A stretch of DNA of 44,506 bases from a virus (lineage: Duplodnaviria; Caudoviricetes): positions 1-44,506 of the IMG/VR virus record IMGVR_UViG_3300011423_000013, one strand, 5' to 3'. The translations under genes and the position numbers were made by a program. The notes under the pieces were generated by a model. It saw nothing but the letters and a program-made list of their open reading frames with translations, searched no databases and had not been told where the DNA came from. Below, one piece after another: positions 4,566 to 39,231 of the stretch. The number at the start of each line of letters is the position of its first letter. The first letter of the stretch is position 1.

Positions 4566-5523
4566 TTACACTCCGCTGGCGGAGAAGACCGCTGCCTCTG
4601 CTAACGAGGCGGCTACAGCCACCACGATGCAAAACCGCCCTAACCAGGTGGACATCCATGGCAATACCTCTACCTGGACCACGGACGCGCAGGGTCGCCC
4701 GGTACAGACTCAGACCCTAGGGGCGGCTGCTCAGGGCCAACTCGACGCGGGCAACGCCCTAGTTACCGGGGCTCAGGGCCGGGCTACCGACGCCCTGGGC
4801 CAGCCCCTGACTACGGAAGGCCTGCGGGAGGTGGGGGACTACGATACGTCTCAGCTTCAGGGCGTGGACGCCGAGGGGCTGCGGGCGGGGGCCGGTCAGT
4901 TCAACATGGATCCGACTGGTAATTCCAAGTCAATTCAGGACGCTACCTATGGTCTTCTTTCGTCCCAGAGGGACCTTGCGAGGAACTCCGAAATACAGCG
5001 ACTCAAGTCGCAAGGACTCACCGAAGACTCCCCTGCGTTCCAGAGGGCTATGCTACGTCAGGGACAAGCCGATACGGATGCGCAGCTCAAGTCGCTTCTA
5101 GCCGGCACCACGGAGTACGGCAATCAGTTCAACCGGGGCTTGGCCCAGAACCAGTCCAACTTCGGTCAGCGTACTGACGCCGAGAAGTTCGCCATGGGCC
5201 TCCGCGGTCAGCAGTTCGGGGAGCAAGGCGCTCAGATAGAGGCTGATGCGGCTGCTAGGAAGGCGGGCCTGGACGAGCGCATGGGATTGCGTAACCAGTC
5301 CATCGATGAACTGACGGCCCTCAGCAGCGTGCCCCAGGGCAATGGTCCGGCGTTCGGGCAGTTCGCCGGGGCCACCGACCAGCAGGGGGTGGACTACCTC
5401 GGCGCGGCCAAGGACAAGTACGGGGCTGAGGTGAACGCCACCAACGCTAAGAACGCAGGTAAGTCTAGCACGATGTCTGGCATTGCCTCTTTGGCCGGTA
5501 CGGCCGCAATGGTGTTCCTATGA
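4531..5523 (+). CDS. DNA ejection / pilot protein
   Basis: N-terminal MGKKSKPPPAPDY, Gln/Ala-rich body and glycine-rich hydrophobic C-terminus, as in podovirus ejection proteins. Confidence 0.65.
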   Translation: MGKKSKPPPAPDYTPLAEKTAASANEAATATTMQNRPNQVDIHGNTSTWTTDAQGRPVQTQTLGAAAQGQLDAGNALVTGAQGRATDALGQPLTTEGLREVGDYDTSQLQGVDAEGLRAGAGQFNMDPTGNSKSIQDATYGLLSSQRDLARNSEIQRLKSQGLTEDSPAFQRAMLRQGQADTDAQLKSLLAGTTEYGNQFNRGLAQNQSNFGQRTDAEKFAMGLRGQQFGEQGAQIEADAAARKAGLDERMGLRNQSIDELTALSSVPQGNGPAFGQFAGATDQQGVDYLGAAKDKYGAEVNATNAKNAGKSSTMSGIASLAGTAAMVFL

Positions 5524-6191
5524 AAGTCCTACAATTCTCCGGCGGCATTGACTCCCTGGCGTGCCTGGAGTTGCTGAAGAATGAGCGCGGCCTTCACGTG
5601 GTCACGGTCAGCACTGACGGGTCCTACCCTGAGCGGGACGCCTACCTCAAGGTGGTGGCGGATAGGCACCCCCATATCCCGTTCATGACCACCATGAGCG
5701 ACCGGGACCTGGACCAGTACGGCCACCCTGTTGACGTAGTGCCCATGCGCTACACCGGCCTGGGCAATATGATCGAAGGCACGCCGGTGAAGTACCAGAG
5801 CGCCTTCGAGTGCTGCGCTAGGGGCTTCTGGCACCCTATGTTCGATACGATGATCCGTATGGGAGCCACCGAGGTATTCCGTGGCCAGCGTCGGGACGAC
5901 CTGCTCAAGTCCCCCATCAAGGATGGGCACGTAGAGGGTCCGATCACCTATCGGTTCCCAATCTACGACTGGACCAGGGGACAGGTCGCCCACTACGTCA
6001 AGGTCAATTGCCCCGATCTAGTCCCTGAGTACTACAGCAAGGAGCTGACCTCGCGGGACTGCTGGGACTGTACAGCTTACCTACGGGACAACGATGCCCG
6101 TATCCGTAACCTGCCCCATGAGCAGCGGGTCAAGGTGTCCGACATTCTAGCCGAATGGCGGCGTGACGTCAACTCAGAAACGAGGTGGTAG
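5520..6191 (+). CDS. PAPS-reductase-like PP-loop (adenine nucleotide alpha hydrolase) protein
   Basis: QFSGGIDS PP-loop, a CC pair, RGQRRDD, FPIYDWT and C-terminal SRDCWDCT. Confidence 0.75.
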   Translation: MKVLQFSGGIDSLACLELLKNERGLHVVTVSTDGSYPERDAYLKVVADRHPHIPFMTTMSDRDLDQYGHPVDVVPMRYTGLGNMIEGTPVKYQSAFECCARGFWHPMFDTMIRMGATEVFRGQRRDDLLKSPIKDGHVEGPITYRFPIYDWTRGQVAHYVKVNCPDLVPEYYSKELTSRDCWDCTAYLRDNDARIRNLPHEQRVKVSDILAEWRRDVNSETRW

Positions 6192-11449: not shown

Positions 11450-11556
11450 CCCCCGTTACAGCAAAACCAAGCCCTAATGCAGGCCCGTGCAGCGATTATT
11501 TTCGGGGGGGTAAGGGGGTAGGTAGGGGTAAAATCGGGGCGGTCCTAGGAGTTTAT

Positions 11557-12792
11557 ATGTCAGAAGCATCAGCCGTACTAGACCACGCGGACGAGGTGAT
11601 TCTCCCGATCATAGCACTTGCTTCGGGCTACAACGGTGCTGTCATTAGTATCACCGAGGACCTTCATCTGTATGTCCGCCCAGCTGGCAGCGATGCCAAT
11701 GATGGGTACACCAATACGGATGCCCATGCCTTCTCTAGCGGCACCCGAGCCTATGAGGAAGCCAAGCGGTTCATCCCCAGCGATGGGGCCCAAATCATTA
11801 TCCACCTGGGGACGGGCATGCTCGCCCCCATACAGGCTGTCGGGTACATACCTGGACCGCCAGTCGTCTTTAGGGGTAATGGCGCAGCCGCTACCTCAGT
11901 GGTTAAGGGGGTATTGGGTGCCCCCGTTGACGCATCCTTCTATGCTGACGCCGGGGCCAGTATCCTGGTGGAGAGCTTCAAGGTGGGAGGCGACGGCCAG
12001 AGTAACGGGATCATGTCCTCTCATGGGGCTACCGTCACCATCGGTACAGGCATGGACCTGGGCTCTGTAGCGGGCTCTCAGTTGCTGTCCGCCTCCGGGG
12101 GGTCCATCTACAACTACTCCCCCTACACCATCAGCGGCGGCGGGGCTAGCCACATGGGGGCCTGGGGAGCAGGGGCCTACATTGAGGGCGGTAGCACCGT
12201 TGTAACGATCCCCGCAGCCATCACCTTCACCTCGGCCTTCGTTGACGTAGGCATGGACGCTACGGTGTTCAACTCGGACACTGACTACGTGGGCCGGGAG
12301 AACGTCACCGGCATGCGGTTCATAGTGAAGGACTTCGGTTACATCAATACGGAGAACAGCGGCCTCAACTACTTCCCCGGCACCATCGCAGGGACCTGGT
12401 TGAATGGTGGGGCCTACGACCAGAGTGGCGGGGCGAATCCCGGCCCCCCTGGCCCTACGGGTCCCATGGGCCCCAAGTCCCTGTCCCTCCAGTTGCCCAT
12501 CGCTGGTGACGAGGTGTCGATGTTCTACGCCAGAGCGGCGCTGACCATTACCCAGATCAATGCGGTGGTGAGGGGGACTACCCCAGGCGTGACGTGGCAG
12601 GTGCTGTACGCTGCCTCCCGCAACTCGGCGGGTACGCCAGTGATCACGGCCCCCACCAACACCACCTCTCTCGCTAACAATACGATCACCACGTTTAACA
12701 ATCCCAACGTACCAGCTAATAACTGGGTATGGATGAAGGTTACGGCCACTTCTGGGATTGCGTTAGAACTCGGCCTGAGCCTTCAATTCTAG
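11557..12792 (+). CDS. Tail spike / appendage protein (beta-helix-like) with short collagen-like linker
   Basis: AGGAG RBS; LYVRPAGSDANDG motif; Gly-rich beta repeats; PGPPGPTGPMGP. Confidence 0.6.
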   Translation: MSEASAVLDHADEVILPIIALASGYNGAVISITEDLHLYVRPAGSDANDGYTNTDAHAFSSGTRAYEEAKRFIPSDGAQIIIHLGTGMLAPIQAVGYIPGPPVVFRGNGAAATSVVKGVLGAPVDASFYADAGASILVESFKVGGDGQSNGIMSSHGATVTIGTGMDLGSVAGSQLLSASGGSIYNYSPYTISGGGASHMGAWGAGAYIEGGSTVVTIPAAITFTSAFVDVGMDATVFNSDTDYVGRENVTGMRFIVKDFGYINTENSGLNYFPGTIAGTWLNGGAYDQSGGANPGPPGPTGPMGPKSLSLQLPIAGDEVSMFYARAALTITQINAVVRGTTPGVTWQVLYAASRNSAGTPVITAPTNTTSLANNTITTFNNPNVPANNWVWMKVTATSGIALELGLSLQF

Positions 12793-17319: not shown

Positions 17320-17627
17320 CAGCGTGTAGTAGGTTTGGGCCGATGCTTCGGCTTCACCTTCGGCTTCAGTGGAACTGAGGCCGGGGGTGGGTTCTGGCAC
17401 ACCGGCATCATGATCGGTGGAGCCTGGACCGGGGCCGCGTAGGCCACCGGCGGTGGAGCAGGCACATGGGGCTTCACATGGGCATGAAGCTCCGCGTTAC
17501 ACTTGCTGAAAGAACCTGCGGACTTATGCCCGCCGTTCCACGAGTAGCAGGTGGGCTCATCCTGGAAGCCACCGCCCGCGTAGGAGCAGGTGGCGACCAG
17601 GAGGCCCGCAAGGGCCAGGTATTTCAT
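17316..17627 (-). CDS. Exported Pro-rich small protein
   Basis: Signal peptide MKYLALAGLLVATCSYA; ATGA overlap with the upstream gene. Confidence 0.6.
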   Translation of the reverse strand: MKYLALAGLLVATCSYAGGGFQDEPTCYSWNGGHKSAGSFSKCNAELHAHVKPHVPAPPPVAYAAPVQAPPIMMPVCQNPPPASVPLKPKVKPKHRPKPTTRC

Positions 17628-17860
17628 TTGGTGTTCCAGGTTACGGCCTTGACTGCCCACATCTGGGAAGTCTGGGCCTCGGTGATGGCGATGGAGAGCA
17701 TGCGCTTTTCATCCGGGTCGGTGCTTTCAGTACGCAGGTCGTTGAGGTTGTCGATGACATCCGCAAACTGCCCCTTGATAGCGTTGACCGTAAGATTGCC
17801 CCCAGGATTGAAGGTAAGGCCCACTGCCCTACCTCCGAACGTCAGGTCATCTTTGGTCAT
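17624..17860 (-). CDS. Putative Acb2/Tad1-like helical-hairpin anti-defence protein
   Basis: 78 aa; GLTFNP, then a helix, then KRMLSIAITEAQTSQMWAVKAVT, resembling the second helix of Acb2/Tad1 cyclic-nucleotide sponges. Confidence 0.6.
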   Translation of the reverse strand: MTKDDLTFGGRAVGLTFNPGGNLTVNAIKGQFADVIDNLNDLRTESTDPDEKRMLSIAITEAQTSQMWAVKAVTWNTK

Positions 17861-19152: not shown

Positions 19153-19194
19153 CTGATCTCCTACTATTTACTTCCCGTTTCCGGGGCCTAGGCT

Positions 19195-19202
19195 CTATTA
19201 TA
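19195..19202 (-). promoter_or_regulatory. TATAATAG promoter motif
   Basis: One of 12 copies seen; upstream of the exported-protein operon. Confidence 0.7.
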
Positions 19203-19208
19203 GGGACT

Positions 19209-19520
19209 TTATCGGTGCTCGTAGGGTTTATTCTCTGTAGAGTAGCTTTCCGGCCCTAGGGTAGCTACTGGGGGAACCACCTTGCGGACGATGGAGTCAA
19301 TCCGGTTCAGTTGGTCCACGGTCAGCTCAGTGTAGGCCAGCCACATACACGCGTAGTCGATGACCTTGATCAGGTCCTCCTGAAGCTGGCCCTTATGCTC
19401 GGCCCGCTCTGCGTACTTGGTGATGTTTCCCGCGTACCAGTTCAGCTTCAGCCGGATCGCCCGCCGGTGGTGCTCTTCCCCCGGCACCGTTTTGTAGTGT
19501 GCGCCTTGTATTTCAGCCAT
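19209..19520 (-). CDS. DUF3310-like nucleotide-modification-associated protein
   Basis: GAHYK...GNITKYAERAEHKG..EDLIKVIDY pattern. Confidence 0.7.
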   Translation of the reverse strand: MAEIQGAHYKTVPGEEHHRRAIRLKLNWYAGNITKYAERAEHKGQLQEDLIKVIDYACMWLAYTELTVDQLNRIDSIVRKVVPPVATLGPESYSTENKPYEHR

Positions 19521-19986
19521 GGTATTCCTTGAAGAGTTGTACGGCCTTGTCGTTCGGATGTCCTATACGGTTGAGGGCGTCCCGTGCTGTAGCAACCACC
19601 TTCTGCATGGTCTGGTTACCCAGCCATGTCTCGCGGCGGGCGAACAGGAAACACTCGAACATATCTGCCCACTTCAGGATATGCTGCTCTTCCGAGTTGA
19701 GGCCCTGACACAGGCCATACTCGAAGTTGAACGCTTCCTCCGCGTCCTCAGAGGCAGACTTGAGGTTGTAGTTGTCCCGCTTCGCGGTGTAGGGGATGTC
19801 CCCTGTTCGGCCCTCGGCCAGGTCGTGGGTCAGGGCCGCCATTAGCAGCTGATACCCCTGGGGGTATATCTCGTTGACGATCATAGCTACACCCCACTGG
19901 TGGTCGGCCAGGGTCTGGGTCTGGAGCGTGATCTGGGTGTGATACCGCTTCACCTGCCCAGCGTCGTATTTAATCCTGAAGTTCAT
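19513..19986 (-). CDS. HD-domain 5'-deoxynucleotidase (YfbR-like)
   Basis: VKRYH, QTLADHQW, ALTHDLAEGRTGDIP and KWADMFE. Confidence 0.85.
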   Translation of the reverse strand: MNFRIKYDAGQVKRYHTQITLQTQTLADHQWGVAMIVNEIYPQGYQLLMAALTHDLAEGRTGDIPYTAKRDNYNLKSASEDAEEAFNFEYGLCQGLNSEEQHILKWADMFECFLFARRETWLGNQTMQKVVATARDALNRIGHPNDKAVQLFKEYHG

Positions 19987-20968
19987 ATGCGTCTTCCCAT
20001 TTGCGGCGTTCCAGCCATTGCTTACAAGCTGTCCGTACTTCCAGGTCAGCGATGTCGTTACAGGCCTCCAGGGCCTGAATGCGCCGCTTGTTCTTGTAGA
20101 ACCTGTACGCCGTCAGCATAGGCCTGAGGACGAGCAGGATGTAGGGGTTGGTATAGTCCCCCCAGTCTGGGGTGCCCATCCATTGGACTATCTCTTCCAG
20201 GTCCGACTGCGAGTTACCGAAGCGCACGATGGATACGTGGGTGGCTGACATTTCCTCGCTGTAGTAGGGAGGTTCCTCAATCTCTTCCATGAGATCAAAG
20301 TGTCGCTCGTAGATGTGGAAGTTGTTACTGAACTGGGTGTAGTGGCCTACATCGACCCCGAGGGAGTCAGCGATAAACTCCTGGAGCATCGACATGTGAA
20401 CCACGTTGGCCCCGTAGGCCCCCCAGATCATGTCGTTACTACGGTTGGTCACCGTCATGTTCAGGAAGCCGTTAACCAGCTCGAAGTACACCGCCGTATT
20501 ACAGGGGATGTCCTTGCTCGGCGGATGGGAGACCAGGGGCTGGTCTGTCTCCGGGTCGAACATCTGTATCACGGCCCTACGGGAGTTGGGGTCATGCCTG
20601 AGGTGATTAATGACCCAGACCAGCTGGTCTCGGCCAAAGTGTTTCCTCCAGCGATGGCCGTATGCCCCCCGGAGGGTAACGCCATCGTCTGAGAACTGGA
20701 CGATGTTCGTATTGAACGCCATAATCCAGCCCACGTCGTCGCGCCCCGCTAGCATCCACACCCCTTCAAAGATGTGGAAGAAGGGATTGGCGTCCCGCTT
20801 AGGGTCAAGCAGCATACGCTCCTTGGGACACCGGTAGGTCGTTGCCACCGGCCCGAGGATACGCCTGACCCTGCCATTTCTTGAGTTCTGTTCGACCCCG
20901 ATGACCCGCATGCGCCAGAGCGCCTCCGGGTACACGTGGTTGACGTTACGACCCGCTATGTCTATCAT
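19970..20968 (-). CDS. Thymidylate-synthase-family dUMP hydroxymethylase
   Basis: SRRAVI, KDIPCN (catalytic Cys), RSNDMIWGAYGAN (Asn indicates dUMP specificity) and NFHIY; clustered with the 5hmdU kinase. Confidence 0.85.
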   Translation of the reverse strand: MIDIAGRNVNHVYPEALWRMRVIGVEQNSRNGRVRRILGPVATTYRCPKERMLLDPKRDANPFFHIFEGVWMLAGRDDVGWIMAFNTNIVQFSDDGVTLRGAYGHRWRKHFGRDQLVWVINHLRHDPNSRRAVIQMFDPETDQPLVSHPPSKDIPCNTAVYFELVNGFLNMTVTNRSNDMIWGAYGANVVHMSMLQEFIADSLGVDVGHYTQFSNNFHIYERHFDLMEEIEEPPYYSEEMSATHVSIVRFGNSQSDLEEIVQWMGTPDWGDYTNPYILLVLRPMLTAYRFYKNKRRIQALEACNDIADLEVRTACKQWLERRKWEDAYELQD

Positions 20969-21247: not shown

Positions 21248-21820
21248 CTAGTCAGGGCGGTAATTAGATGCCATCCAACCCCTCCAGTGGACGACTCCTG
21301 AGGGCAGGAGAGGGTGGAATGTACCTATGGGAGGTCGGGGGTTATTCTGCCTGTCCCACTCCAGGTTCTCTACTACAACCTTGTCCTCGGCGGCGGTCTC
21401 CATGTACGCCTCTATGGCAGCGTGGGCTAGTCGCAGGTTCTCTGTAGTGGCGAAGAACTCCAATGTCTGGGTGGTCTCGTGCTTCAGGCTCGACTTCACG
21501 TACATGCCAGGGTAGTTCTCGAACATGTCGTAGGGGTAGGAGCAGAGCCACTTGGCCCCATAGTCTGGGAAGTAGCCCCCGGAGTGCTCCATCCACAGCC
21601 TGTAGTACTCCAGGTAAGCACCCTGCTTCTCGGTGGGGGCGTTGAAGGCCACCTCCTGGAGGCTACTGGCGGTGGTGTAGGTGATTCGCGCTGTAGCGGT
21701 ATCGACCCAAGAATTGAGGCCCCTATGGATGGGGGCTATATGGTTCAGGTCCATATAGGTCATCATAAAGACCTCCTTGGAGCAATCCATCTTAGCGATG
21801 ATCTTGCGTATGTGCTTCAT
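21248..21820 (-). CDS. Hypothetical protein in the DNA-modification cluster (190 aa)
   Basis: ATG (MKHIRK) overlaps the kinase stop codon; no motif recognised. Confidence 0.6.
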   Translation of the reverse strand: MKHIRKIIAKMDCSKEVFMMTYMDLNHIAPIHRGLNSWVDTATARITYTTASSLQEVAFNAPTEKQGAYLEYYRLWMEHSGGYFPDYGAKWLCSYPYDMFENYPGMYVKSSLKHETTQTLEFFATTENLRLAHAAIEAYMETAAEDKVVVENLEWDRQNNPRPPIGTFHPLLPSGVVHWRGWMASNYRPD

Positions 21821-22653
21821 ACCTGGTACTTGTTCTTGAGCCGTTCGTCGAAGTGCTTGGCCCGAACGTACTTGCTCAGTTCGCAGAGGCAGTTCTGGGT
21901 GTTCTGGGCGCAGAGGGCCAGGCCTACGTTCTTCAGGATGTGCTCCCTGATCACGTTGACCTCCGCGATGAAGTTGGGGACCGGTATGGTCATCGTGCGG
22001 GGTCGCTCGTGGATGAAGTTGAGACCCATCTGCGAGCCGGGGCCAGGAGCACACCACGAGTACCAGTCACTGGCCTGGGAGAGGTGGTCCGTATGCTTCA
22101 GGTCGGCTATGACCTGGGCCACGAGGAAGGTTCCCATACCGGGCGTAGCCAGGGTCCCCGCCGCGAAGCTGAGCATGGCTGGCCTGGCCCCAATGAACCT
22201 ACGGCACATGTACGCAGCCCCGTCCAGGACGCGGGCGATGATCACCTGCTTGGTCTCCCCGCCAGCGGAGTAGCCGCCCGTCACCATGTAGGCCCCGGTC
22301 CAGGACTTGAGCCCCTTCTCCTTGCGCTTGTCGAAGGTCTCAATGAAGTGCTGGCGGTAGTCCGGTGTCCACCCCTTATGCGGGTAGCCCAGTTCCTCCA
22401 GAGTCTCCGGCCAGTTGACCAGGCGGGCTATACACATGGCGATGGGCAGATTCTCGTCCGACAGGCCGTGGGGCATGTAGTTGTTATGGATCCACCGCGT
22501 GACCTTGTCATGCTCGCGGCGGACGTTACACCACCTGTTCCCCGCCATGATTGGGTCCTCAGACCACGGCGGGTCCCACTGATCGTTCTCCTTGCGCCGC
22601 CGTATGGCCTCGCGCTCGTTGATCCAGTAGTATAGATCGTTGAGGTACTTCAC
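21817..22653 (-). CDS. 5-hydroxymethyluracil DNA kinase (aGPT-Pplase1 family)
   Basis: YWINEREAIR...PPWSEDPIM...CNVRREHDKVT, ARLVNWP, GAYMV, FLVAQVIADL, APGPGS and QNCLCELSKY. GTG start overlaps the upstream stop. Confidence 0.85.
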   Translation of the reverse strand: MKYLNDLYYWINEREAIRRRKENDQWDPPWSEDPIMAGNRWCNVRREHDKVTRWIHNNYMPHGLSDENLPIAMCIARLVNWPETLEELGYPHKGWTPDYRQHFIETFDKRKEKGLKSWTGAYMVTGGYSAGGETKQVIIARVLDGAAYMCRRFIGARPAMLSFAAGTLATPGMGTFLVAQVIADLKHTDHLSQASDWYSWCAPGPGSQMGLNFIHERPRTMTIPVPNFIAEVNVIREHILKNVGLALCAQNTQNCLCELSKYVRAKHFDERLKNKYQV

Positions 22654-22760
22654 TTGGGTTCCTTGAAGTTCCTCACGAACATCCAGCAGATGCCGATGAT
22701 GGTTGCGCAAGGCAAGCCAATCACGAGGCCCAAGGCGATAAGGATTTCAGTGTTGCTCAT
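22650..22760 (-). CDS. Small membrane protein (36 aa, not in the ORF track)
   Basis: MSNTEILIALGLVIGLPCATIIGICWMFVRNFKEPK; translationally coupled at both ends. Confidence 0.55.
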   Translation of the reverse strand: MSNTEILIALGLVIGLPCATIIGICWMFVRNFKEPK

Positions 22761-22975
22761 AGCTCATACTCCCATTTCAATGCGTCTTCCAAGGAAGTCG
22801 CGGTTACACGCCCGTCATCGGGGAAAACTTTGACGTAGTAAGTGAAGTTGTTCTTCTTGCGGTAGCGGACGAACCAGCCCGCGGCAATGAGCTCGTCCAG
22901 CATGGCCTGCTCGTATTGGAGCTTGGCCCCCCGGATATGGTTGTAGCCCATAGAGGACATGGGGGTGACGTTCAC
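22757..22975 (-). CDS. Hypothetical protein
   Basis: 4-nt overlaps with both neighbours. Confidence 0.55.
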   Translation of the reverse strand: MNVTPMSSMGYNHIRGAKLQYEQAMLDELIAAGWFVRYRKKNNFTYYVKVFPDDGRVTATSLEDALKWEYEL

Positions 22976-23508
22976 AGTAGCTCCAGGAGTTGGGGGGCCA
23001 TAGGTTTGTCGTGCTTCAGGACTACCACGGTATGCGTACCGCCCTCCAGCTTCCGGCGAAGGGCATCGATGGTAGAGTGCTTGTCCTTGGTAAGCTCGGG
23101 GTTGAACTTATTGTTCTTGCCGCTGACCGCCCTGCGGGCTACCACCCGGTCCAGGCAGATGTCGATAGGGGTGTCGAGGAAGGCATAGATGTAGTCCTTC
23201 CCATACTGTACAGAGTGGGCCCCCATCCGCCCGTAGTAGGTGGACTGGAGCAACCCCTCGAATACGACATGGCCCAAGACGGCATACTTGTCGATGAGCT
23301 TCATGACCGTGTCGGCGCTATCTAGCACGTCCACCCCTCCGCACTTGTTCTCGTAAGAGCCCAGCGTGAAGATGTCGTTGTCGAGGCGGTAAGCCTCAAT
23401 CTTGCCGTTCATCCCAATGATGGGCATCGGCTTACTGAACATGAGCTCCCGGACAGCGGTGGTCTTACCCGAGCCCGAGCAGCCGTGTATCTTGATTATC
23501 TTACTCAC
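22972..23508 (-). CDS. P-loop nucleotide kinase associated with base modification
   Basis: IIKIHGCSGSGKTT Walker A, CGGVD, VVFEGLL and LDTPIDICLDRV..RR; GGAGG RBS before GTG at 23508. Confidence 0.8.
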   Translation of the reverse strand: MSKIIKIHGCSGSGKTTAVRELMFSKPMPIIGMNGKIEAYRLDNDIFTLGSYENKCGGVDVLDSADTVMKLIDKYAVLGHVVFEGLLQSTYYGRMGAHSVQYGKDYIYAFLDTPIDICLDRVVARRAVSGKNNKFNPELTKDKHSTIDALRRKLEGGTHTVVVLKHDKPMAPQLLELL

Positions 23509-24762: not shown

Positions 24763-26130
24763 CTATTCCCTGGGGACTATACGTTTTATTGCGTTGTTCA
24801 GGAGATTTTGCGTGCGGTCTTTCCCAGCTAGGGCAGCCACTACATCCTCGTCCTTCGTGTTCTCGGCTACGAGGTGGTGTACTGAGACTACGGGTGACGT
24901 CTGCCCCTGGCGCCAGATACGGGCGATGGCTTGCTGGTACAACTCTAGGTCCCAGGTTATACCAAACCAGCATATGTCCTTACACGCCTCTTGTAGGTTC
25001 AGGCCGTGGCCCATGGACCGGGGATGCCCTATCAGGAGTGGTATCCGCCCGGCATTGAACTCGTTGATAACATAGGCTACGTTCTTGACCTGGCCGATGT
25101 TCACTGCCCCAGGGAACTCCTTCATGATCCGCTCACCGTCATCGATGAACTCGTAACAGACCAGGAGGGGCCTGCCTTGCATTTCCTCAATAAGCTCCCG
25201 CAGGGCTTCAACCTTCTCATCGTGGAGCCGATGGGCAGTATGGAACTCGTCGTACAGGAAACCGTTGGCCACCTGGCGTAGCTTCGTCCCCAGGGCGGCG
25301 GTATTGAATACCGCCACGGTCTGCTCGCTCAGCTCTAGCAAGAATGTACGCTCTAGCTCCTTGTACTGGGCATAGGCCTGGGGAGGCAGCTTGATCGGGA
25401 TGTAGTTGTTAATGAGCTCCGGCATGTCGAGGTGGTCCTTGGCCATGAGGCGCAAGAGCTTCCCCGACACCTTATCGTAGATGTCCGTAGCCGAGTTAGG
25501 GGCCATGAGCCAGGTAAACCCATCGTGGGACTGGTACATATACCGCTGGCGGAAGTGCGTAATGTACTTGCCGAGGGCGACCCCCATGTCGCATACGTAC
25601 ATCTGGCCGAATAGGTCCGCCAGCCCGTTAGGTGCCGGCGTACCCGTCAGGATGACCCGGCGCTTGAAGCGGTGGAGTTCCTTCTTCAGGGCCTTAAACC
25701 TCTGAGTCTGGCTATCCTTGAACTTCGTACTCTCATCGATGACGAGCATGTCGAGGTCCACCCACTTCCAGGGGTCCAACTCCAGTAGCCGGGTCAGGGA
25801 CTCCGGGTTGATCACGTATACATCGTAGCCCCTACGGAGCATGTCCACTCTGGTCTCCCGGTCCATCTCAGTAAGGTCGCAGATCGTGAGGTGGTTGAAG
25901 TCCTCCCACTTCTGCGCCTCGACCGGCCAGACCGTCTTTGCCACCCGGAGGGGGGCCACTACCAGCGCGTGGTGGATGTAGTTGTCCTCCTTCAGGAAGG
26001 TAATCGCCGCCAGGGTGGCCGATGTCTTTCCCAGGCCGGGATCGAGCAGAAGCCCGCTATGGGGCTTCTCCATGAGCCACTTGAGGGCTACCTCCTGGTA
26101 GGGCCTAGGATTCCAGGGGACCGCGTTCAT
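24763..26130 (-). CDS. SNF2-family (SF2) helicase
   Basis: PRPYQ, DPGLGKT, VIDESTKFK, LTGTPAPN, GHGLNLQ and ARIWRQGQ. Confidence 0.92.
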   Translation of the reverse strand: MNAVPWNPRPYQEVALKWLMEKPHSGLLLDPGLGKTSATLAAITFLKEDNYIHHALVVAPLRVAKTVWPVEAQKWEDFNHLTICDLTEMDRETRVDMLRRGYDVYVINPESLTRLLELDPWKWVDLDMLVIDESTKFKDSQTQRFKALKKELHRFKRRVILTGTPAPNGLADLFGQMYVCDMGVALGKYITHFRQRYMYQSHDGFTWLMAPNSATDIYDKVSGKLLRLMAKDHLDMPELINNYIPIKLPPQAYAQYKELERTFLLELSEQTVAVFNTAALGTKLRQVANGFLYDEFHTAHRLHDEKVEALRELIEEMQGRPLLVCYEFIDDGERIMKEFPGAVNIGQVKNVAYVINEFNAGRIPLLIGHPRSMGHGLNLQEACKDICWFGITWDLELYQQAIARIWRQGQTSPVVSVHHLVAENTKDEDVVAALAGKDRTQNLLNNAIKRIVPRE

Positions 26131-26899
26131 ATTGACTCCAGTCTTGCTTCGGGGGTAGGTACTGGAGCAGGTCCGGGTACTGGGCCAGCTGCCGGTATTT
26201 AGAGTCAACGTCGTCACCAATGGTATGCGTCTTGGTGATGAAGTACCCCTTCATCATACAGAGAATGGTCTCTGCCTCGGGGTAGGAGCATGGGCGGTCG
26301 CCGCCCGGAGGGGCAGGGAACTTCCTCACGTAGTCAGTGACTATCTCCATGGCGTCATGGAAGTGTAGCTCTGGCCAGATGATCTTGGCGCATTTGCGCG
26401 GGTCGTCGGGGCAGTGCTTTACCGCCTCGGATAGGGTAATGTGGATGGGTCGGCCCCAGACACGATCCTGGAGGTCCATGACCTTCCATACGAAGTATGG
26501 GCCGAAGCCGCACCCTTGGAACTTGTGCTTGAACTTATCCACCAGAGCGGTGTAGTTGAATGCGTACATTTGCTCCCAGATGTCCATCGGAGTACCGCGC
26601 TCACGTAGATTACGCAGGAATACCAGGCCCTTATCACCCCTGCTATGCCGACGCTCGGTGCCCCTCTGGAAGATGGGGTAATTCGCTATCGTGTAGTCCC
26701 AGAAGGTTCTCTGAGTCGAGCACCGCGCCGCCTTCACTGCCTCGCCTAGGTCATAGAAGCAGAGGTAGTGGATGGCGAACTTGGTCGCCCAGTCGTCGCC
26801 GTTCGCCTTACGTGCGTTGTACAGGAAGACGTAGGACGGATCAAGGTCGTTAGTCTCGATGGTTATCTTGGCGAAGTCGCGCCAGTTGGTTACTCTCAT
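26105..26899 (-). CDS. Amino acid:DNA transferase (aGPT-Pplase2 family)
   Basis: TNDLDPSY, YLCFYDLG, RGTERRHSRG, GFGPYFVWKVMDLQDR and EAETILC. Confidence 0.8.
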   Translation of the reverse strand: MRVTNWRDFAKITIETNDLDPSYVFLYNARKANGDDWATKFAIHYLCFYDLGEAVKAARCSTQRTFWDYTIANYPIFQRGTERRHSRGDKGLVFLRNLRERGTPMDIWEQMYAFNYTALVDKFKHKFQGCGFGPYFVWKVMDLQDRVWGRPIHITLSEAVKHCPDDPRKCAKIIWPELHFHDAMEIVTDYVRKFPAPPGGDRPCSYPEAETILCMMKGYFITKTHTIGDDVDSKYRQLAQYPDLLQYLPPKQDWSQYERGPLES

Positions 26900-27822: not shown

Positions 27823-29590
27823 TATACTTCTCCAGGTTATACCAGTTGGGGCCGTGCTCGACCTCGGCTATGAAAGGAACGTCGAAGCCAGGGAGCTTCT
27901 CCATGGCGTACTTGAGCTTGGCGATATTCTCATCGCGGTCTTTTAGGGGGCTCGACACGTCGTTTTCGTCGTGTACCGTCAGTAGGAACCTACCAGAAGG
28001 CGATAGTTTATGGTATTCAATGATAGACTGTTTTGTCTGGTCCGCAGCCGATCCTTGGATGAGGTGGTTGGGTAACTTATATGAGAAGTCCCAGTTGGTC
28101 CCCTCCGGGCGGTCGACAGGTATCCATCGGCCACCCCAAGTCGTCACCCCCTGACGGGATGAGGCATCATCAATAAAAGCCTTCAAACCTGGTATAGTTC
28201 TGAGGTAGACATCGCGTAAACGCTTCGCTACACCGTAATCTACACCCAACTGGCCCGCGAGGTTATCTACACCCGCCCCATAAATCAGGGAAAACCCCGT
28301 TATCTTGATCTTCTTGCGGGGGAACTCCAGCCCGGCCTCGACCTTAATTAGGTCCCTGGCTATCTCGTGGAAGTCGGCGGTGGGATTCTCGCGGTAGATT
28401 TGAGCTGCCCGGCCCTCTGCGAAGTGGGCCAGGAGCCTCATTTCCTGGCCGTTGTAGTCGGCGCAGATAATCTCTTCACCCAGGTCAGGGAGGATGTACC
28501 TCCGCATGAATACCATCGGCGGATAGCCGGGTATGTTAATGTTCTCAAACTCCGTAGGGACGTTCATGAGGTTAGGCTCGGAGCAGGATAGCCGCCCCGT
28601 GCGTGTCCCATACTCGTCCCCTCTGACCTGGTTCCACGATGGATGAAGGTGCCCATCGTGGGCGCTCATCGCGTACCAGGGATTCATGAAGGTCGTAAGC
28701 AGCGTCTTCAGTGCGCCCCTATACCGTAGCGCGGCGAGCAGCTGCGGGTCGCTGATAGCGCCTTCTAGCGATGCCCTAGCGGTTGAATAGCGTCCGGTCG
28801 GAGTCTTCTTCAACCGATCCATGTCTATGACCGGTGAGCCATAGAGGGACTTAATGAGTTCGGTGGGGGAGTCTACATTGAACCGCTTCCCAATCCGCCA
28901 CTGGATGTACTCCGTGATCTGGTTGAAGTACACCGTGTAGAGTTGGATGTCAATCCAGAGCTTCGGGCGGTCGATCCGCACGCCACGCTTCTCCATGTCC
29001 ATGAGGATAGGGGCCAGCTGTATCTCCCGCTGGTATGCGTTCTCCCAGCCCCTCTCCTTCATCTCAGGACGGAGGTACTCATGGAGGGATCGTGTACGGA
29101 ATACGTCACCGATGGCGTAGGGCTCGATCAGCGAGGCGGGGCACTTGCTAATGAAGGCCCCAGCCTTAGAGCGTGCCTTGGTCCACCCCTGGGCCACCAC
29201 AAAGTCAGCCACGGCGTCCTGTTCGTCTGGCGGGATGCTCAAGAGCTTCTCAGCTGAGGGTTTCAGTGAGACAGACTTGGCGAGGGGATTATGTAGATAA
29301 ATCTGGTACATGGTGTCGTCCCAGGAGGCAGGATGGCCGAAGCCCCAGTGCTCGCGTGCGACGCCGATGTCGAACTTGCCATGGTGGAACAGGACGCCCC
29401 TATCCCACATGCGGTGTATCTCCGCTTTGGCCTCATACTCCAGGCAGTTGTTCCCGGTCGGATGGCCCCACGCCATATAGCGAGGGCTCTTGCCAGGCTC
29501 CCAGATGGCAATGCCAACTGGCTTAGGGCTCTTGCCCGTGCCGTCCTGGATCGCTTCTGTCTCGAAGTCCAGTGTAACAATATCAGACAT
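27683..29590 (-). CDS. Family A DNA polymerase with 3'-5' exonuclease
   Basis: LDFETE, KFDI, TRTGRLS, motif A DYNGQEMR, motif B K...FSLIYG and motif C VHDE. Confidence 0.95.
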   Translation of the reverse strand: MSDIVTLDFETEAIQDGTGKSPKPVGIAIWEPGKSPRYMAWGHPTGNNCLEYEAKAEIHRMWDRGVLFHHGKFDIGVAREHWGFGHPASWDDTMYQIYLHNPLAKSVSLKPSAEKLLSIPPDEQDAVADFVVAQGWTKARSKAGAFISKCPASLIEPYAIGDVFRTRSLHEYLRPEMKERGWENAYQREIQLAPILMDMEKRGVRIDRPKLWIDIQLYTVYFNQITEYIQWRIGKRFNVDSPTELIKSLYGSPVIDMDRLKKTPTGRYSTARASLEGAISDPQLLAALRYRGALKTLLTTFMNPWYAMSAHDGHLHPSWNQVRGDEYGTRTGRLSCSEPNLMNVPTEFENINIPGYPPMVFMRRYILPDLGEEIICADYNGQEMRLLAHFAEGRAAQIYRENPTADFHEIARDLIKVEAGLEFPRKKIKITGFSLIYGAGVDNLAGQLGVDYGVAKRLRDVYLRTIPGLKAFIDDASSRQGVTTWGGRWIPVDRPEGTNWDFSYKLPNHLIQGSAADQTKQSIIEYHKLSPSGRFLLTVHDENDVSSPLKDRDENIAKLKYAMEKLPGFDVPFIAEVEHGPNWYNLEKYNAPANTVVLFKPEHLRELPSKVEVLVPGREAERAIPSHGEGDAATR

Positions 29591-29601
29591 AGTTCCTCTA
29601 T

Positions 29602-29626
29602 GAAGAAAAGAGCCCCTTACGGGGGC
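29602..29626 (-). terminator. Intrinsic terminator / attenuator upstream of the polymerase gene
   Basis: Minus strand GCCCCCGTAAGGGGCT followed by CTTTTCTT. Confidence 0.6.
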
Positions 29627-29728
29627 CAGTCGGCTAGGTCACGGCGACAGAGAGTAGATAGACAGCACCGCCCTAGCTGCTAGGGGTTATTGCCGACACC
29701 CCTAGCTGGTCGGGGAGGGGGCCTCCAG

Positions 29729-30520
29729 TTAGAACTTGTTCGAGCCACCGGAGGAACGCTCTGCCATTTCCTCCTTGGTCGGGTACACCGGGTAGGGCGC
29801 TTGTTCCATTGCCCAGTTGCGGTTAGCGAGGGTCTCCAGGATGGCCTCGTCCTTGATCTGCTCCAGGGGCTTCCAGTACACTTGGAACAGGGTGCGATCG
29901 TGGGGCTTCACGCTGAGCTCGACCACGAACTGGAACGGGGCCATCCCTGCCGACGCCGCGTCATTGATAAACTTCTGGAAGTTCTTCACTGACGTAGCGG
30001 GTAGGTCGCATTGGAGGAAGTCAGTGCGAGTAGCCTTGTCGATGTTCTGGGCAACGTCCGCCGGCAGGAGCCAGATGCGCCGCGAGTTCGTACAGGCCTT
30101 GCCCTTGGAGCCGCCACCGGCTGAGCCCCATTCGTTCTTCTCGCAGTTGGAGCAGTAGTCCGACATCTGCTCTTCGGCCTGATCGTGGGGCTGGAGGGAT
30201 TCCTCATCGCGGGCGAAGGCGTAGCAGCGTGGGGGTACGATCTTCGCTGAGTTGTACTCCGAGTCGAACCACTTGTTATGGAACAAGTAGTCGACAACCA
30301 CGCAGTCGATCTTGTCGTCGCGCATGAGCGAGTCACCGATGGAGAGGCGACCACCCTTGAAAGAGATGAAGCCCCCAGAGGGCTTCTCCGATTCAGCGAC
30401 CTTCACGGCCACCGCCTTAATGCGGTCCTTCCAGGAGCCGGGCATCGCCACGGCTGTCGAACGGGGAATAGCCACGGCTGTGCCGGGCTCAACGGGTGCG
30501 GGGGTTTTCTTGTCGGCCAT
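29729..30520 (-). CDS. Probable ssDNA-binding / replication accessory protein
   Basis: CSNCEKNEWGS...KGKAC motif, LPATSVKNF, and position directly upstream of the polymerase. Confidence 0.55.
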   Translation of the reverse strand: MADKKTPAPVEPGTAVAIPRSTAVAMPGSWKDRIKAVAVKVAESEKPSGGFISFKGGRLSIGDSLMRDDKIDCVVVDYLFHNKWFDSEYNSAKIVPPRCYAFARDEESLQPHDQAEEQMSDYCSNCEKNEWGSAGGGSKGKACTNSRRIWLLPADVAQNIDKATRTDFLQCDLPATSVKNFQKFINDAASAGMAPFQFVVELSVKPHDRTLFQVYWKPLEQIKDEAILETLANRNWAMEQAPYPVYPTKEEMAERSSGGSNKF

Positions 30521-30966: not shown

Positions 30967-31563
30967 TCAGCGCTGCGAACGCTTCGATTTCTTGCCACTC
31001 ATCGTTTCGGCAGGAGCCTCCTGCAGCGTTTCGGCGGGCGCGGAGTAGCTACCCCCTTCGCCCGCGTCGTTCGCGTCTGCAGGGGGCGGTTCCGCCCCTG
31101 CATCCGCTGTTTGCGCCTCGGGGTTAGCGGCGGCTTTCGCCGCCTTAGCCTTCGCAGCGGCCTCCGACTGCGCCCGGCGGTCCAGCTTCAGGGGCTGGAA
31201 CTTGTAGCCCTCTGGATAGGTGAACTCGTACATCGTGTCGGCCTGGTGATGGCCAGGGACGTAGAAGCTGGCGCCGTTGTAGATGAAGTAGGTGTAGCGG
31301 ATTTCGCCAAAGGTCGTTTGGGCAGCTTCGCATTCCTCGCCGTTCACCGTCAGCGTGTACCGCGCTGCCTTCAGGGGCATGGGGTACTTGATTGCCTTGT
31401 GCGCGTCGGTAGCGCCGACAGGGCGGAAGAGCAGCTGGGCGGGGCCAGGGCGCTTCGGCTTATCCGTGTCCGTTGGCTTGTCCGTGGGCGGATAGTCCCC
31501 CACCTCGTTCAGGATGAGCGTAGCGGTGGCGGGGGGCAGGCTTGAGCCTTCAGTATTTTCCAT
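30967..31563 (-). CDS. Hypothetical early protein with acidic/Ala tail and basic C-terminus
   Basis: GGAG RBS; own promoter; biased codon usage. Confidence 0.7.
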   Translation of the reverse strand: MENTEGSSLPPATATLILNEVGDYPPTDKPTDTDKPKRPGPAQLLFRPVGATDAHKAIKYPMPLKAARYTLTVNGEECEAAQTTFGEIRYTYFIYNGASFYVPGHHQADTMYEFTYPEGYKFQPLKLDRRAQSEAAAKAKAAKAAANPEAQTADAGAEPPPADANDAGEGGSYSAPAETLQEAPAETMSGKKSKRSQR

Positions 31564-32770: not shown

Positions 32771-32816
32771 GGGTTCTACTTTCCTTGCTACTCTAGGGGC
32801 CGCCTAGTCGGTAGCT

Positions 32817-32904
32817 CTATTATAGGCGGGCCACTTACTGTTTAAGTGCCTATCTTCTGTACAGAAACGAGGCAAACCCTGTCCCCCTAGAGCGCCTATA
32901 ATAG
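32817..32904. promoter_or_regulatory. Divergent pair of TATAATAG promoters (- at 32817-32824, + at 32897-32904)
   Basis: Both read CGCCTATAATAG and lie between divergent genes. Confidence 0.75.
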
Positions 32905-32937
32905 GAGGTTCCCCCCCTAGATAGACAGGAATAGGCC

Positions 32938-36140: not shown

Positions 36141-36383
36141 GACCTGGCCCCAAACAACACACCACAACGAGTGTACAAAAACATCTGCAGCCCCCCACAA
36201 TTTGGGATAAATCGGTGTTACAGCATCGCTGGCACACTGCTTTGCCATGCTCCTGTGCCCGATGCCTGTCGCAGCCGCAGCACAGGCCCATAGCCTCAGG
36301 CTATCGCAGCAGCGCAGCCATAGGCACAGGCTATCAGCATGCGTGCTGTGCGAGCTTGTGTGGATAAAATCCGGCATATCCCC

Positions 36384-36391
36384 CTATTATA
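36384..36391 (-). promoter_or_regulatory. TATAATAG promoter motif pointing into the non-coding region
   Basis: TAGACG-N17-TATAAT on the minus strand; no credible ORF directly downstream. Confidence 0.5.
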
Positions 36392-36601
36392 ACCTGTTTT
36401 CGCTGTTCCGTCTAATTGTATTTCGCTATCGCAGCGTTGCTGCCGATAGCTGCGGGCTATGCTGCGCTGCCCCCGCCCGCCGCCTCCCCCGCCCTCCCAC
36501 CCCTATTCTACCCGATTTTCGGGTGAAAGTCTAATAGATTTCAGCTATAGGACCGATAGAAAATTTCTATGCTCGAAACGCCGGAATCACCCGAAAACCC
36601 C

Positions 36602-36609
36602 TATAATAG
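36602..36609 (+). promoter_or_regulatory. TATAATAG promoter of the TG/CA-free gene
   Basis: CCCTATAATAGAGCC about 90 nt upstream of the ATG at 36698. Confidence 0.7.
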
Positions 36610-36697
36610 AGCCTAGGGGAAGCCGATAGGGGCCGTACCCTAGGGGCCTTTTCCCCGAACCCGCCTAGGGGGTTTTCCCTAGTTTAGAGAGTAAAAA

Positions 36698-37180
36698 ATG
36701 CGTAAAGTTTTCGTTAACGGTAACCTTTCCCTCGTCCGCGTCCTTTCCCCCTTCGCGTATAAGGACCCGATTAAGACGCTCGATAAGTCGAACGAGGCCC
36801 GCGTTACCCTCGACGGCGTAAGGGTCTTTCGCTCGGCCGTTACCTCGGGCCGCGACGTTAAAAACGTAAACGGCGGACTAAAGTTTCATCTTTACTTCTA
36901 TAGTTCTAAGGACGCCGCCGAGGCCCGCGATACGTCGCGCCGCGAGTTCTTTCCTATTACGTCGGAGGAGTTTCGGGCGTATAAGGACGACCCGGCTTAT
37001 ACTATCGAGTTAGTTTCGGCGACGGGCCTCGAAAAGGCGGAAACGGAAGTACTACCCGACGGCGTAAACGAGGCCGTTCGTTCCGAGGAGGCGATTTTCG
37101 TTACCGTTTCGGAAACGGAAGTACTACCGGACGACGAGCCCGCGAACGAAGGTACTACCCGTAAGTCGCGTAGGAAATAA
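36698..37180 (+). CDS. Stand-alone hypothetical protein encoded almost without TG/CA dinucleotides
   Basis: Own promoter, leader GAGAGTAAAAAATG and terminator; 160 aa with no Gln, Trp, Cys or internal Met and only one His. Confidence 0.75.
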   Translation: MRKVFVNGNLSLVRVLSPFAYKDPIKTLDKSNEARVTLDGVRVFRSAVTSGRDVKNVNGGLKFHLYFYSSKDAAEARDTSRREFFPITSEEFRAYKDDPAYTIELVSATGLEKAETEVLPDGVNEAVRSEEAIFVTVSETEVLPDDEPANEGTTRKSRRK

Positions 37181-37186
37181 AAGTAC

Positions 37187-37208
37187 TACTACTCCCTAGG
37201 GAGTAGTA
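37187..37208. repeat. Perfect 22-bp palindrome
   Basis: TACTACTCCCTAGGGAGTAGTA is its own reverse complement. Confidence 0.85.
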
Positions 37209-37214
37209 CCTAAG

Positions 37215-37248
37215 TACCCGATAGGTAATCCCTATCGGGTATTTTTTT
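37215..37248 (+). terminator. Strong intrinsic terminator
   Basis: TACCCGATAGG-TAATC-CCTATCGGGTA followed by T7. Confidence 0.9.
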
Positions 37249-37419
37249 CGATAGGTGATAGCGAAAAGCTATCGCCGATTTTTCTTCATAGGAAAAATTA
37301 ATCGGCGGGGCGGGGTAGGGGGGATATGGGGGGTGGAGCGGCATACGCGTGCGGACATGAAATCGACACATGAAGGAATTCATGCAACCATGCACAGAAA
37401 ATTTCCATGCAACTGTGCC

Positions 37420-37450
37420 TTTACCTCCAGCGGAATCGCGCCTATAATAG
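37420..37450 (+). promoter_or_regulatory. Promoter of the packaging/structural operon
   Basis: TTTACC-N17-TATAATAG; the terS ATG is at 37455, close to the expected +1. Confidence 0.7.
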
Positions 37451-37454
37451 GGTC

Positions 37455-37874
37455 ATGGATGAGCCCAAACGCGACCCCGCACTCTCACATCTCTTGGACC
37501 AGATTGAGAATGGCCCCCCTATGTTACTTCAGGGACTCAATTTGGAGATGTCCCCTGAACTGACCCGGCTATTGGAGCGCGGGCTGATTGGGGATTCCCT
37601 CCCACCGGTGCTCAAGGACTCAAAGGCAGCTAAAGCCTTCCAGCAGGCCTTTGATATGATAGGTGGAGTACCAAGATTGGCCCTCTGGGCTGACCAAAAC
37701 CCGACCAAGTTCTACACCCTCTATAGCAAATTGGTCCCGGCCACTGCGGAAGTCAACACAAAGACCGATATTAAGGTCACAATCAGTTGGGCCTCCCCCG
37801 AGCGCCTGTCCTACGCACACGGTCCCATCGAGGACGTGGTCCCCAATCCTGAATCGGACGCTCCAAGTGCTTGA
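37455..37874 (+). CDS. terS: Terminase small subunit
   Basis: Directly upstream of and overlapping terL; AFDMIGGVPRLALWADQNPTKFYTLYSKLVP motif. Confidence 0.75.
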   Translation: MDEPKRDPALSHLLDQIENGPPMLLQGLNLEMSPELTRLLERGLIGDSLPPVLKDSKAAKAFQQAFDMIGGVPRLALWADQNPTKFYTLYSKLVPATAEVNTKTDIKVTISWASPERLSYAHGPIEDVVPNPESDAPSA

Positions 37875-39231
37875 GTATGTCCCTCGCCAGCAATTCCTCG
37901 GCTTTCACAACCGGAGGCACCGCTGGGCTGTCCTGAATACGCATCGGCGAGCAGGCAAAACTGTGGCTCTGACCAATGATTTGATCGTTGGGGCCCTCCA
38001 GAACCAACTCCGTAAGCCCCAACTAGCCTATATTGGCCCCACATTCACCCAGGCGAAGCGTATTGCGTGGCAATACCTCAAGGATTATGCTGAACCGTAC
38101 CTGGCCAAACCCCCCTCCGAGTCAGAACTCAAGATCACACTCCACGGTGAGCGGACGTTATATTGTCTCGGTGCCGACAATCCTGATTCACTCCGCGGAA
38201 TGTACCTTGATGGCGCGGTCATGGACGAGTACGCACTTTTTAGACCCTCTGTTTTCTCAACTATTATCCGGCCAGCCCTATCAGACAGGAACGGATGGGG
38301 AGTCTTCGCCTCTACACCAAGAGGCAAGAACCTGTTTTATAGCGAGTACAAGAAAGCAATCAAAAACCCCAAGGAATACTTCCAACTGACGCTGAAGGCG
38401 TCCATTTCGGGCCTGATTCACCCCCTTGAGCTGGAGGCCCTCCGCAAGGACATGGACCCGGAGGAATATGCGCAGGAGTACGAGTGTTCGTTTGATGCTG
38501 CTCTGAAAGGAGCCATCTATGCAGAAGAAATCAATCAAGTCTTTGCCGAGCAGCGGGTCAGACCTTCCCTATATGATCCCAATCTCTCAACTCATGTGGT
38601 ATTTGACCTGGGCTTCACAGATGCGACCGTCGCCATATATTGGCAAGAAGCACCAGACGGCACAATCCGAGTCGTCAACGTCGAAGTCACCAACGGAAAA
38701 GACATCTTCCACCACATCGACCGCATTATACAGTTCAAAGGTCAAGCTGACCTAGGTTCGGTCTGGCTCCCCCACGATGCCAAGGCCAAGAACCTCCAAA
38801 CGGGCAAGTCCATAATTGAGCAGTTCCTTGACAACGACATTCGGCCCCAGATCGTCCCCAATCACAAGGTTCGGGATCGGATTGCCGCCACACGCAACAT
38901 CTTCCCCCGTGTCCACTTTGACGAGGAAATCAGTGAGGACCTCCTGGAGGCCCTCAAGGGCTACCGCCGCGAGTGGGACGACAATCTGCTCATGTTCAAG
39001 GACATCCCGATGCACGACTGGTGCTCGGACTACGCAGACGCCTTCGGGTACATGGGTGTAGTTGCCGCCCCGAAATTCGGCAACTTGGGGACTGCTGATA
39101 TGTCCCCCGACGCGATCAGGGTACAGCAAGATCGCGCCAAGAAGCACAACGCGCCTGGCCAGTACACTATGGCCAACCTCTTTCAGGACTATGAGGACCG
39201 TCAGAAGGGTCTTCGCAGGAGAATCACATAA
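37867..39231 (+). CDS. terL: Terminase large subunit
   Basis: HRRAGKT Walker A, LRGMYLDGAVMDEY Walker B, STPRGKN, FDLGFTD nuclease motif and SDYADAFGY. Confidence 0.95.
   Translation: MLEYVPRQQFLGFHNRRHRWAVLNTHRRAGKTVALTNDLIVGALQNQLRKPQLAYIGPTFTQAKRIAWQYLKDYAEPYLAKPPSESELKITLHGERTLYCLGADNPDSLRGMYLDGAVMDEYALFRPSVFSTIIRPALSDRNGWGVFASTPRGKNLFYSEYKKAIKNPKEYFQLTLKASISGLIHPLELEALRKDMDPEEYAQEYECSFDAALKGAIYAEEINQVFAEQRVRPSLYDPNLSTHVVFDLGFTDATVAIYWQEAPDGTIRVVNVEVTNGKDIFHHIDRIIQFKGQADLGSVWLPHDAKAKNLQTGKSIIEQFLDNDIRPQIVPNHKVRDRIAATRNIFPRVHFDEEISEDLLEALKGYRREWDDNLLMFKDIPMHDWCSDYADAFGYMGVVAAPKFGNLGTADMSPDAIRVQQDRAKKHNAPGQYTMANLFQDYEDRQKGLRRRIT

Follow-up and report, generated by a model that had tools for sequence, protein, structure and literature searches.

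One transcription unit of the phage genome analysed here (the window, the whole 44,506-nt stretch; a 44.5 kb record rated 100% complete by CheckV) is purged of the dinucleotides TG and CA. The purge is real and under selection, and it is very likely tied to the modification that the phage is predicted to place on its own DNA. We give a probability of about 70% to the explanation that the unit is kept free of TG so that host RNA polymerase can read it at once.

The TG/CA-purged unit

Positions 36590-37255 (666 bp, GC 53%) contain two TG/CA sites, against 83.7 predicted from the genome-wide rate (Poisson log10 P about -33). A sequence-only reading of this DNA had counted two where about 80 were expected, and our recount agrees. 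The sole TG belongs to the ATG start codon (36699) and the sole CA to the His64 codon CAT (36887). The three longest TG/CA gaps of the window (369, 188 and 111 bp) all lie in this unit, and the next-longest measures 68 bp. Within the unit TC and GA are unaffected, with observed/expected ratios of 0.91 and 1.07. Genome-wide, TG and CA stand at 1.0-1.07, and the 35 other window genes measured carry 41-88 of each per kb, which bears out the claim that the rest of the genome uses them freely. The purge spans the -10 box, leader, ORF and terminator, as had been described, but it does not stop at the unit's edges; these are soft, and depletion continues over 36470-37326 (9 TG/CA sites against 108 expected).

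Amino-acid or codon bias is excluded as the cause by codon-aware tests. Resampling synonymous codons for the same protein with genome codon use gave an expectation of 22 TG and 22 CA in the ORF, where one of each is seen (z -5.8 and -6.0). None of the 65 codons that stand before a G ends in T, compared with 38 of the 95 before other bases; none of the 37 that stand before an A ends in C, compared with 58 of 123 before other bases (p 8e-11 and 6e-9 for these junction-specific zeros). The earlier claim that the purge shapes the protein also stands: the 160-aa product has no Gln, Trp, Cys or internal Met.

Genomic setting

The window encodes a portal, a terminase, a family A polymerase, a primase and a helicase; a scan of 58 window ORFs revealed neither an RNA polymerase nor a sigma factor. 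The island sits in a mostly non-coding stretch, with leftward small genes on one side and the terminase genes on the other (Table 1). A TATAATAG motif lies upstream of most window operons, with -35 boxes (e.g. TAGACT, TTTACC) that contain neither TG nor CA. The island promoter has no canonical -35; TTGACA would contain both TG and CA. Folding of its predicted leader was no better than that of shuffled sequences (z -1.1). Elsewhere in the window the next-longest TG/CA gaps (46-68 bp: 19154-19216, 11490-11558, 31024-31078, 32786-32926) fall mostly at predicted promoters, and two relatives have longer gaps of this promoter type (143 bp in G005, 152 bp in G013).

Table 1. Features of the window, with their positions and predicted roles.
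Feature	Position	Strand	Remarks
PAPS reductase domain gene	5520-6191	+	Amid structural genes; in several relatives with and without the pathway
Acb2/Tad1 hairpin-domain protein	17624-17860	-	PF24729, E 8e-12; predicted sponge for defence signalling molecules
Thymidylate-synthase-family gene	19970-20968	-	PF00303; 39% over 337 aa to YuA gp17, E 2e-69
PF18723 protein	21817-22710	-	aGPT-Pplase1 in record annotations
5-hmdU DNA kinase	22972-23505	-	PF18748, 35.8 bits (cut-off 27); homologous to M6, ViI, PhiW-14 and SH-Ab 15599 loci
Amino acid/amine:DNA transferase (Pplase2)	26105-26899	-	PF18724, 23.4 bits, under the cut-off of 26.2; best named match PhiW-14, E 2e-30
Densest TG/CA patch of the genome	36150-36349		Non-coding; 45-46 vs 25 per 200 bp; predicted heavily modified
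Seven ATAG-N7-CTAT palindromes	36290, 36320, 36446, 36534, 36556, 37221, 37258 (span 36290-37272)		The window's only ones; 0.41 expected
Two tandem promoter-like sites	36386-36533	-	TAGACT-17-TAGAAT, TAGACG-17-TATAAT; leftward, adjoin island; -35 boxes without TG/CA
TG/CA-purged core	36590-37255		2 sites; softer depletion 36470-37326
Predicted -10 box	36602-36607	+	TATAAT in genome-wide motif CCTATAATAG[AG]G; inferred promoter function
Predicted leader	36614-36697	+	About 85 nt; purine-rich ribosome-binding tract at 36686-36691
160-aa ORF, P0001	36698-37180	+	Conserved domain 1-110 (mostly beta), then an acidic disordered linker and a basic RKSRRK tail
His64 codon CAT	36887-36889	+	Only template-strand TG retained; His in at least 90% of 50 aligned homologues
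Two hairpins	37187-37249	+	Second (37212-37244) with T-run, predicted intrinsic terminator, z -4.6
Second TG/CA-dense patch	37327-37420		21 vs 12; between island and predicted small-terminase promoter
Large terminase ORF	37663-39231	+	Landmark near which relatives' islands lie

The dense patches that flank the island possibly represent heavily marked genome ends or a packaging signal. Clusters of ATAG-N7-CTAT palindromes also precede the terminase in G001, G008, G009 and G027. As the P0001 family is missing from three of these genomes, the palindromes may be bound by the small terminase or some other protein. Contig depth over about 36520-37310 is 1.6-2.2 times that of the flanks (runs X2, X4, X5), a measure that cannot rank regions; the rise could come from a terminal repeat, from better amplification of unmarked DNA or from collapsed strains.

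Predicted modification pathway

The sequence-only reading had named a 5hmdU DNA kinase and an amino acid:DNA transferase. Homologues of both are present, together with dUMP hydroxymethylase-like and PF18723 genes; YuA gp17, the match of the first, is annotated as a putative dUMP hydroxymethyltransferase. M6, ViI, PhiW-14, PaMx11 and SH-Ab 15599, as described in passages of PMC8989533, PMC6449724 and PMC13458397, share with the window by homology the dUMP hydroxymethylase-like protein, 5-hmdU DNA kinase, Pplase2, PF18723 protein and HD phosphatase. The window Pplase2 retains its metal-binding and catalytic residues (D25, E222, T223 and Cys align). In its donor pocket Met and Gly occupy SH-Ab positions 227 and 230, where diamine enzymes have Gly and His and glycine enzymes have Lys and Ser. 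Because this pocket fits neither type, the adduct of the window phage may be new. The Pplase2 proteins of relatives have further pocket types, and new adducts are likely among them.

The published context in 5hmdU-hypermodified phages is TG and less often TC, judging from the sections concerned. One part of PMC6449724 describes TG or TC motifs as dominating the resistant sites in M6, ViI and PhiW-14, which matches the context named in the earlier reading, and includes an unpublished remark that the M6 kinase modifies TG. TG sites are given as almost fully modified in SH-Ab 15599 in a portion of PMC13458397, and F8 and 14-1 as modified at TG in one of PMC12191111; extracts of PMC12686479 and PMC13390438 held nothing further on modification context. 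We therefore regard TG as very probably the marked context in the window phage. According to a section of PMC8989533, virion DNA is without 5hmdU, and non-context 5hmdU is turned into ordinary T before packaging. Since non-context sites revert in this way, a TG-free stretch should be plain DNA in the virion. As to transcription, extracts report that kinase-treated templates gave an E. coli RNA polymerase yield of 10% of that from the 5hmU template (PMC6457204), and that bulky major-groove groups usually inhibit bacterial polymerase (PMC11550810).

Island type and modification enzyme among relatives

Relatives were gathered through their capsid and PF18723 proteins, from the best 80 of 225 and the best 80 of 436 loci, and the longer contigs were taken. 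The kinase occurs in 22 of 44 relatives and a TAGT glycosyltransferase in nine of 44, never together; two of the kinase calls rest on tblastn and six fall under the Pfam cut-off. An island was called where one strand had at most one site in 350 bp, a strict rule set after a first look at the new genomes; the fragment G024 lacks the terminase region and was not counted.

Under this rule 7 of 24 kinase genomes and none of 24 other family records have a TG-type island. TC-type islands are absent from all 24 kinase genomes and occur in six of nine TAGT genomes, or five of nine without the G050 repeat artefact, with no TG-type island among the nine. Four untyped records had no TG-type and two TC-type islands. 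In the 11 pathway-negative relatives (two of them fragments) there was neither a TG-type nor a TC-type island. Island type follows enzyme type with a Fisher p of 0.0013, uncorrected for kinship. Twenty-one genomes were fetched after the prediction had been written down (10 kb of one, G033, had been scanned earlier): three of 11 kinase genomes had TG-type and four of seven TAGT genomes TC-type islands, with no cross-over (p 0.029 for the new genomes alone). As the kinase and TAGT types mostly form separate clades, these p-values overstate independence. On the polymerase tree (40 rows) each island type needs four changes, at least three of them forced. No TG-type island was found in 13 named phages (M6, YuA, PaMx11, ViI, PhiW-14, SH-Ab 15599, F8, 14-1 and five others), and their two TC-type calls were both artefacts.

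Islands of both types occupy the same place. In the assembled contigs, each of the 12 with an assignable position is found 1-3.2 kb ahead of the large terminase. In 13 of 21 kinase genomes, against one of 11 negatives, the stretch richest in the matching dinucleotide falls within 3.3 kb on the upstream side of the terminase anchor; for TC, this zone contains the richest stretch in four of six TAGT genomes and two of 21 kinase genomes. That this one place shows both a depletion and an enrichment, and that the two change over together, suggests that the dinucleotide is chemically important at this site. The gene enclosed differs: the TAGT genome G020 has a 1.08-kb island free of TC/GA around an unrelated gene, and hhalign detected no homology to P0001 in the island genes of G049 and G020 (0.3% and 0.0%), although the genes of G049, G046, G044 and G040 appear similar on visual inspection.

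G020 (L161:7222-9985) and eight other TAGT records combine a dUMP-hydroxymethylase-like gene, PF18723 and TAGT, with no kinase. From this gene content they likely have a sugar-on-thymine pathway, for which the predicted context is TC. Three PF18723-positive genomes (G051, G043, G054) match neither kinase nor TAGT; G051 has a clean TC/GA island (0 sites vs 39) and that of G043 is partial, which may reflect a further transferase.

The transferase pocket does not separate purged from unpurged relatives. G002, G010 and G005, which have the window's gene family and pocket, are without a strict island, and so are G008, G009 and G027, whose pocket is that of the purged G007. The early arm is the poorer in template TG in 16 of 21 kinase genomes and four of 11 negative ones (p 0.015, one of eight uncorrected tests). 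The TAGT counterpart of this test was not significant (p 0.098), and a genome-wide early-versus-late effect is weak.

Several look-alike dips were set aside. The island of F8/14-1 gp066 is a Lys/Glu/Ala-rich, low-complexity artefact, that of G025 a pentapeptide repeat, and the TC-type island of G050 a repeat artefact. In G006 a GC dip reflects AT-rich intergenic DNA and a TC/GA dip (6 vs 33) short repeats. TA dips in G008, G009 and G027 were dropped as false islands. An early idea that GpC islands mark cytosine-modifying relatives was also given up.

Purge states and the strand rule

Among 18 loci homologous to P0001 (one a duplicate), ten are purged of TG and CA, three only of coding-strand CA (template TG), and in five the template is not purged. 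The both-strand purge persists down to 65-70% identity, and the CA always retained in purged loci is the His codon. To place these states on a protein tree of 56 homologues (10 near-duplicates, fragments and one spurious match were left out), Gln loss served as a proxy for the purged state, checked against DNA for the 18 loci only. The unpurged state undergoes seven changes on this tree, at least six of them forced by well-supported branches, indicating that the purge was gained or lost repeatedly.

Eight one-stranded islands clear the template strand whatever the direction of the gene, with 9 template against 190 coding sites. Where the gene runs rightward (G004, L013, L019), plus-strand CA is cleared; where it runs leftward (G044, G046, G049, G007), plus-strand TG is. 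In these islands the purge starts near the predicted transcription start, and template sites return within 30-110 bp of the stop codon. This template-strand clearing points to transcription. In L014 and L015 the purge reaches 70-130 bp upstream of the -10 box, and in G020, G040, G051 and G055 it enters non-coding DNA by 200 bp or more; these four leave room for a packaging or protection role on top. The island of G040 (about 28100-30000 on the terminase strand) is about 1.9 kb long with zero plus-strand TG and holds two leftward ORFs, one acidic and without an ATG, plus long non-coding DNA.

The opposite of the strand rule is seen in G002, G010, G036/G037, G038, L017 and L018, where TG is reduced on the coding strand only (z -3 to -5). 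This reduction is incomplete and is accompanied by a general bias to C-ending codons. The early gene of these records (G002, G010, G036, G037, G038, L017, L018) is low in coding-strand TG and CA-rich; the capsid genes checked were normal.

The island protein

P0001 was modelled with a pLDDT of about 90 over residues 1-110, a mostly beta domain with 18 K/R and 14 D/E, and as disordered thereafter. Foldseek returned nothing at E<=0.001 in the PDB and BFVD, and the best VIA-align match had a Z of 2.8 and an rmsd of 4.9 over 49 aligned residues. The homologue set comprises 57 proteins at E<=0.001 among 443 candidates, P0001 included; 50% clustering leaves 12 representatives, none of them named, and 20 columns are invariant across 50 aligned homologues. 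P0001 has no Pfam or PHROGs family (two of 50 family members gave marginal PHROGs matches, E about 0.008). It had no match in named phages, GTDB genomes or the ESM Atlas (two queries), and tblastn found nothing in 50,697 phage records, 14-1 among them. A broadened profile placed the gene in 11 of 49 records, all kinase-positive and three of them weakly.

The basic tail and the conserved basic and aromatic residues would fit nucleic-acid binding. As the leading but tentative candidate role, P0001 would bind nucleic acid or polymerase and help to start expression of the marked genome. A role as a defence inhibitor is almost as likely, and some other role is less likely but conceivable.

Discussion

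The explanation that we favour is that the unit serves the start-up of transcription. In the predicted pathway the kinase and transferase attach a bulky group to the T of TG, and this adduct would slow host polymerase, chiefly on the template strand, as the strand rule suggests. The purged unit would enter the cell as ordinary DNA and be transcribed by host RNA polymerase at once; its position and its own promoter and terminator argue for immediate expression after entry. That selection acts through transcription of the incoming template strand is likely, and that the unit lies at or near the first-entering end and is expressed first is somewhat likely too, at slightly longer odds. The mark probably slows the polymerase rather than blocking it, in which case the purge would be an optional speed-up, gained and lost by lineages. 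The purge is not generally required, as 17 of 24 kinase relatives and the 13 named phages lack a TG island. Replication genes, which also need to be read out from incoming DNA, have normal template TG (61-77 per kb), so that the polymerase either copes slowly or is helped by the island product. The published polymerase inhibition is ascribed to promoter binding and was obtained with other adducts.

The proposal that one gene is kept unmodified for host RNA polymerase finds partial support, in the pathway genes, the published TG context, the dinucleotide that switches with the enzyme and the lack of islands in pathway-negative relatives. Three of its details need amending. Freedom from the mark on both strands is one variant, the template strand being what is always cleared; many kinase relatives do without an island; and some islands run far into non-coding DNA.

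The same unit might instead be a shield, an unmarked island that escapes host modification-dependent nucleases (END, GmrSD types) and encodes their inhibitor. Anti-defence slots often vary in gene content between lineages, as the island genes do, and both-strand purges with non-coding extensions would suit such a role. A part of PMC12191111 describes END nucleases that hit diverse hypermodified phages early and small phage proteins that block them; small early proteins counter modification-dependent nucleases in the Pbunavirus phages F8 and 14-1, whose context, there too, is TG. These two, however, have no TG island, no PF18748 kinase match and no sequence match to P0001, which went without a tblastn match in the phage records that include 14-1. 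Moreover, the eight one-stranded islands keep their coding strand loaded, which should not hide DNA from a nuclease. We consider this explanation improbable; an inhibitor role for P0001 would also be compatible with transcription start-up.

More improbable again is a packaging or entry element: terminase, entry or end-processing proteins would require unmarked DNA beside the terminase genes, and the gene would be purged solely through its location. The constant position before the large terminase speaks for it, as do the palindromes flanking the unit, the matching-dinucleotide patches in the same zone and the purges that cover non-coding DNA. Location, however, does not account for a cleared strand that tracks gene direction, nor for template sites that return so soon after the stop codon.

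Avoidance at the RNA level seems highly improbable. MazF-like RNases cleave RNA at specific sequences, and an mRNA without CA and UG would evade them; one-stranded islands do give an mRNA without CA, and their purge starts near the predicted transcription start. Yet the word absent from the mRNA becomes GA exactly in step with the change of DNA enzyme, the window shows loss of both reverse complements, and the purge of L014 and L015 extends upstream of the -10 box. Equally improbable is a purge without function, from composition, codon bias, a foreign insert or local mutation bias: low-complexity look-alikes exist (F8/14-1 gp066, G025, G050, and AT-rich or repeat DNA in G006), but the window unit has ordinary GC and complexity and junction-specific zeros, its purge persists across 30-35% protein divergence, sparing nothing but the start codon and the conserved His, and both the codon-aware resampling and the enzyme-switch survey contradict it.

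Sequence constraint on first-entering DNA is known from the leading end of T7 and from Ocr. In the first-step transfer of T5/BF23, as treated in a passage of PMC10644984, a short region thought to be expressed first is under a special sequence constraint and may carry cell-preparing genes, and we propose likewise for the window unit under the start-up explanation. In T5/BF23 and T7 the enzyme avoided is the host's, whereas in the window the purged word corresponds to the modifying enzyme predicted for the phage itself. Unlike the T5/T7 type, the window purge is of a dinucleotide, alters the make-up of the protein and tracks the template strand. It also sets the window apart from M6, ViI, PhiW-14, PaMx11 and SH-Ab 15599, none of which has a TG-free unit; nearly all TG is modified in SH-Ab 15599, yet it has no island. 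Open-access full texts, which were the scope of our search, yielded no description of purged islands. The enzymes belong to known families; the genome design around them appears undescribed.

A fuller reading, which we put forward with some reserve, joins these elements: a first gene purged of the phage's own modification motif and flanked by densely marked patches near a genome end would encode a factor of new fold that enables host RNA polymerase to transcribe the marked genome, and the island would read out the modification context, predicting TC for TAGT/PF18723 glycosylation. The islands bear on how a host first transcribes a chemically loaded phage genome, and the both-strand, template-only and unpurged alleles of one gene form a natural experiment. 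For uncultured phages the islands allow the modification context to be predicted, as TG under the kinase pathway and as TC under the TAGT pathway. They also point to the genes most needed in the first minutes of infection, a short list in which to look for new transcription factors or defence inhibitors.
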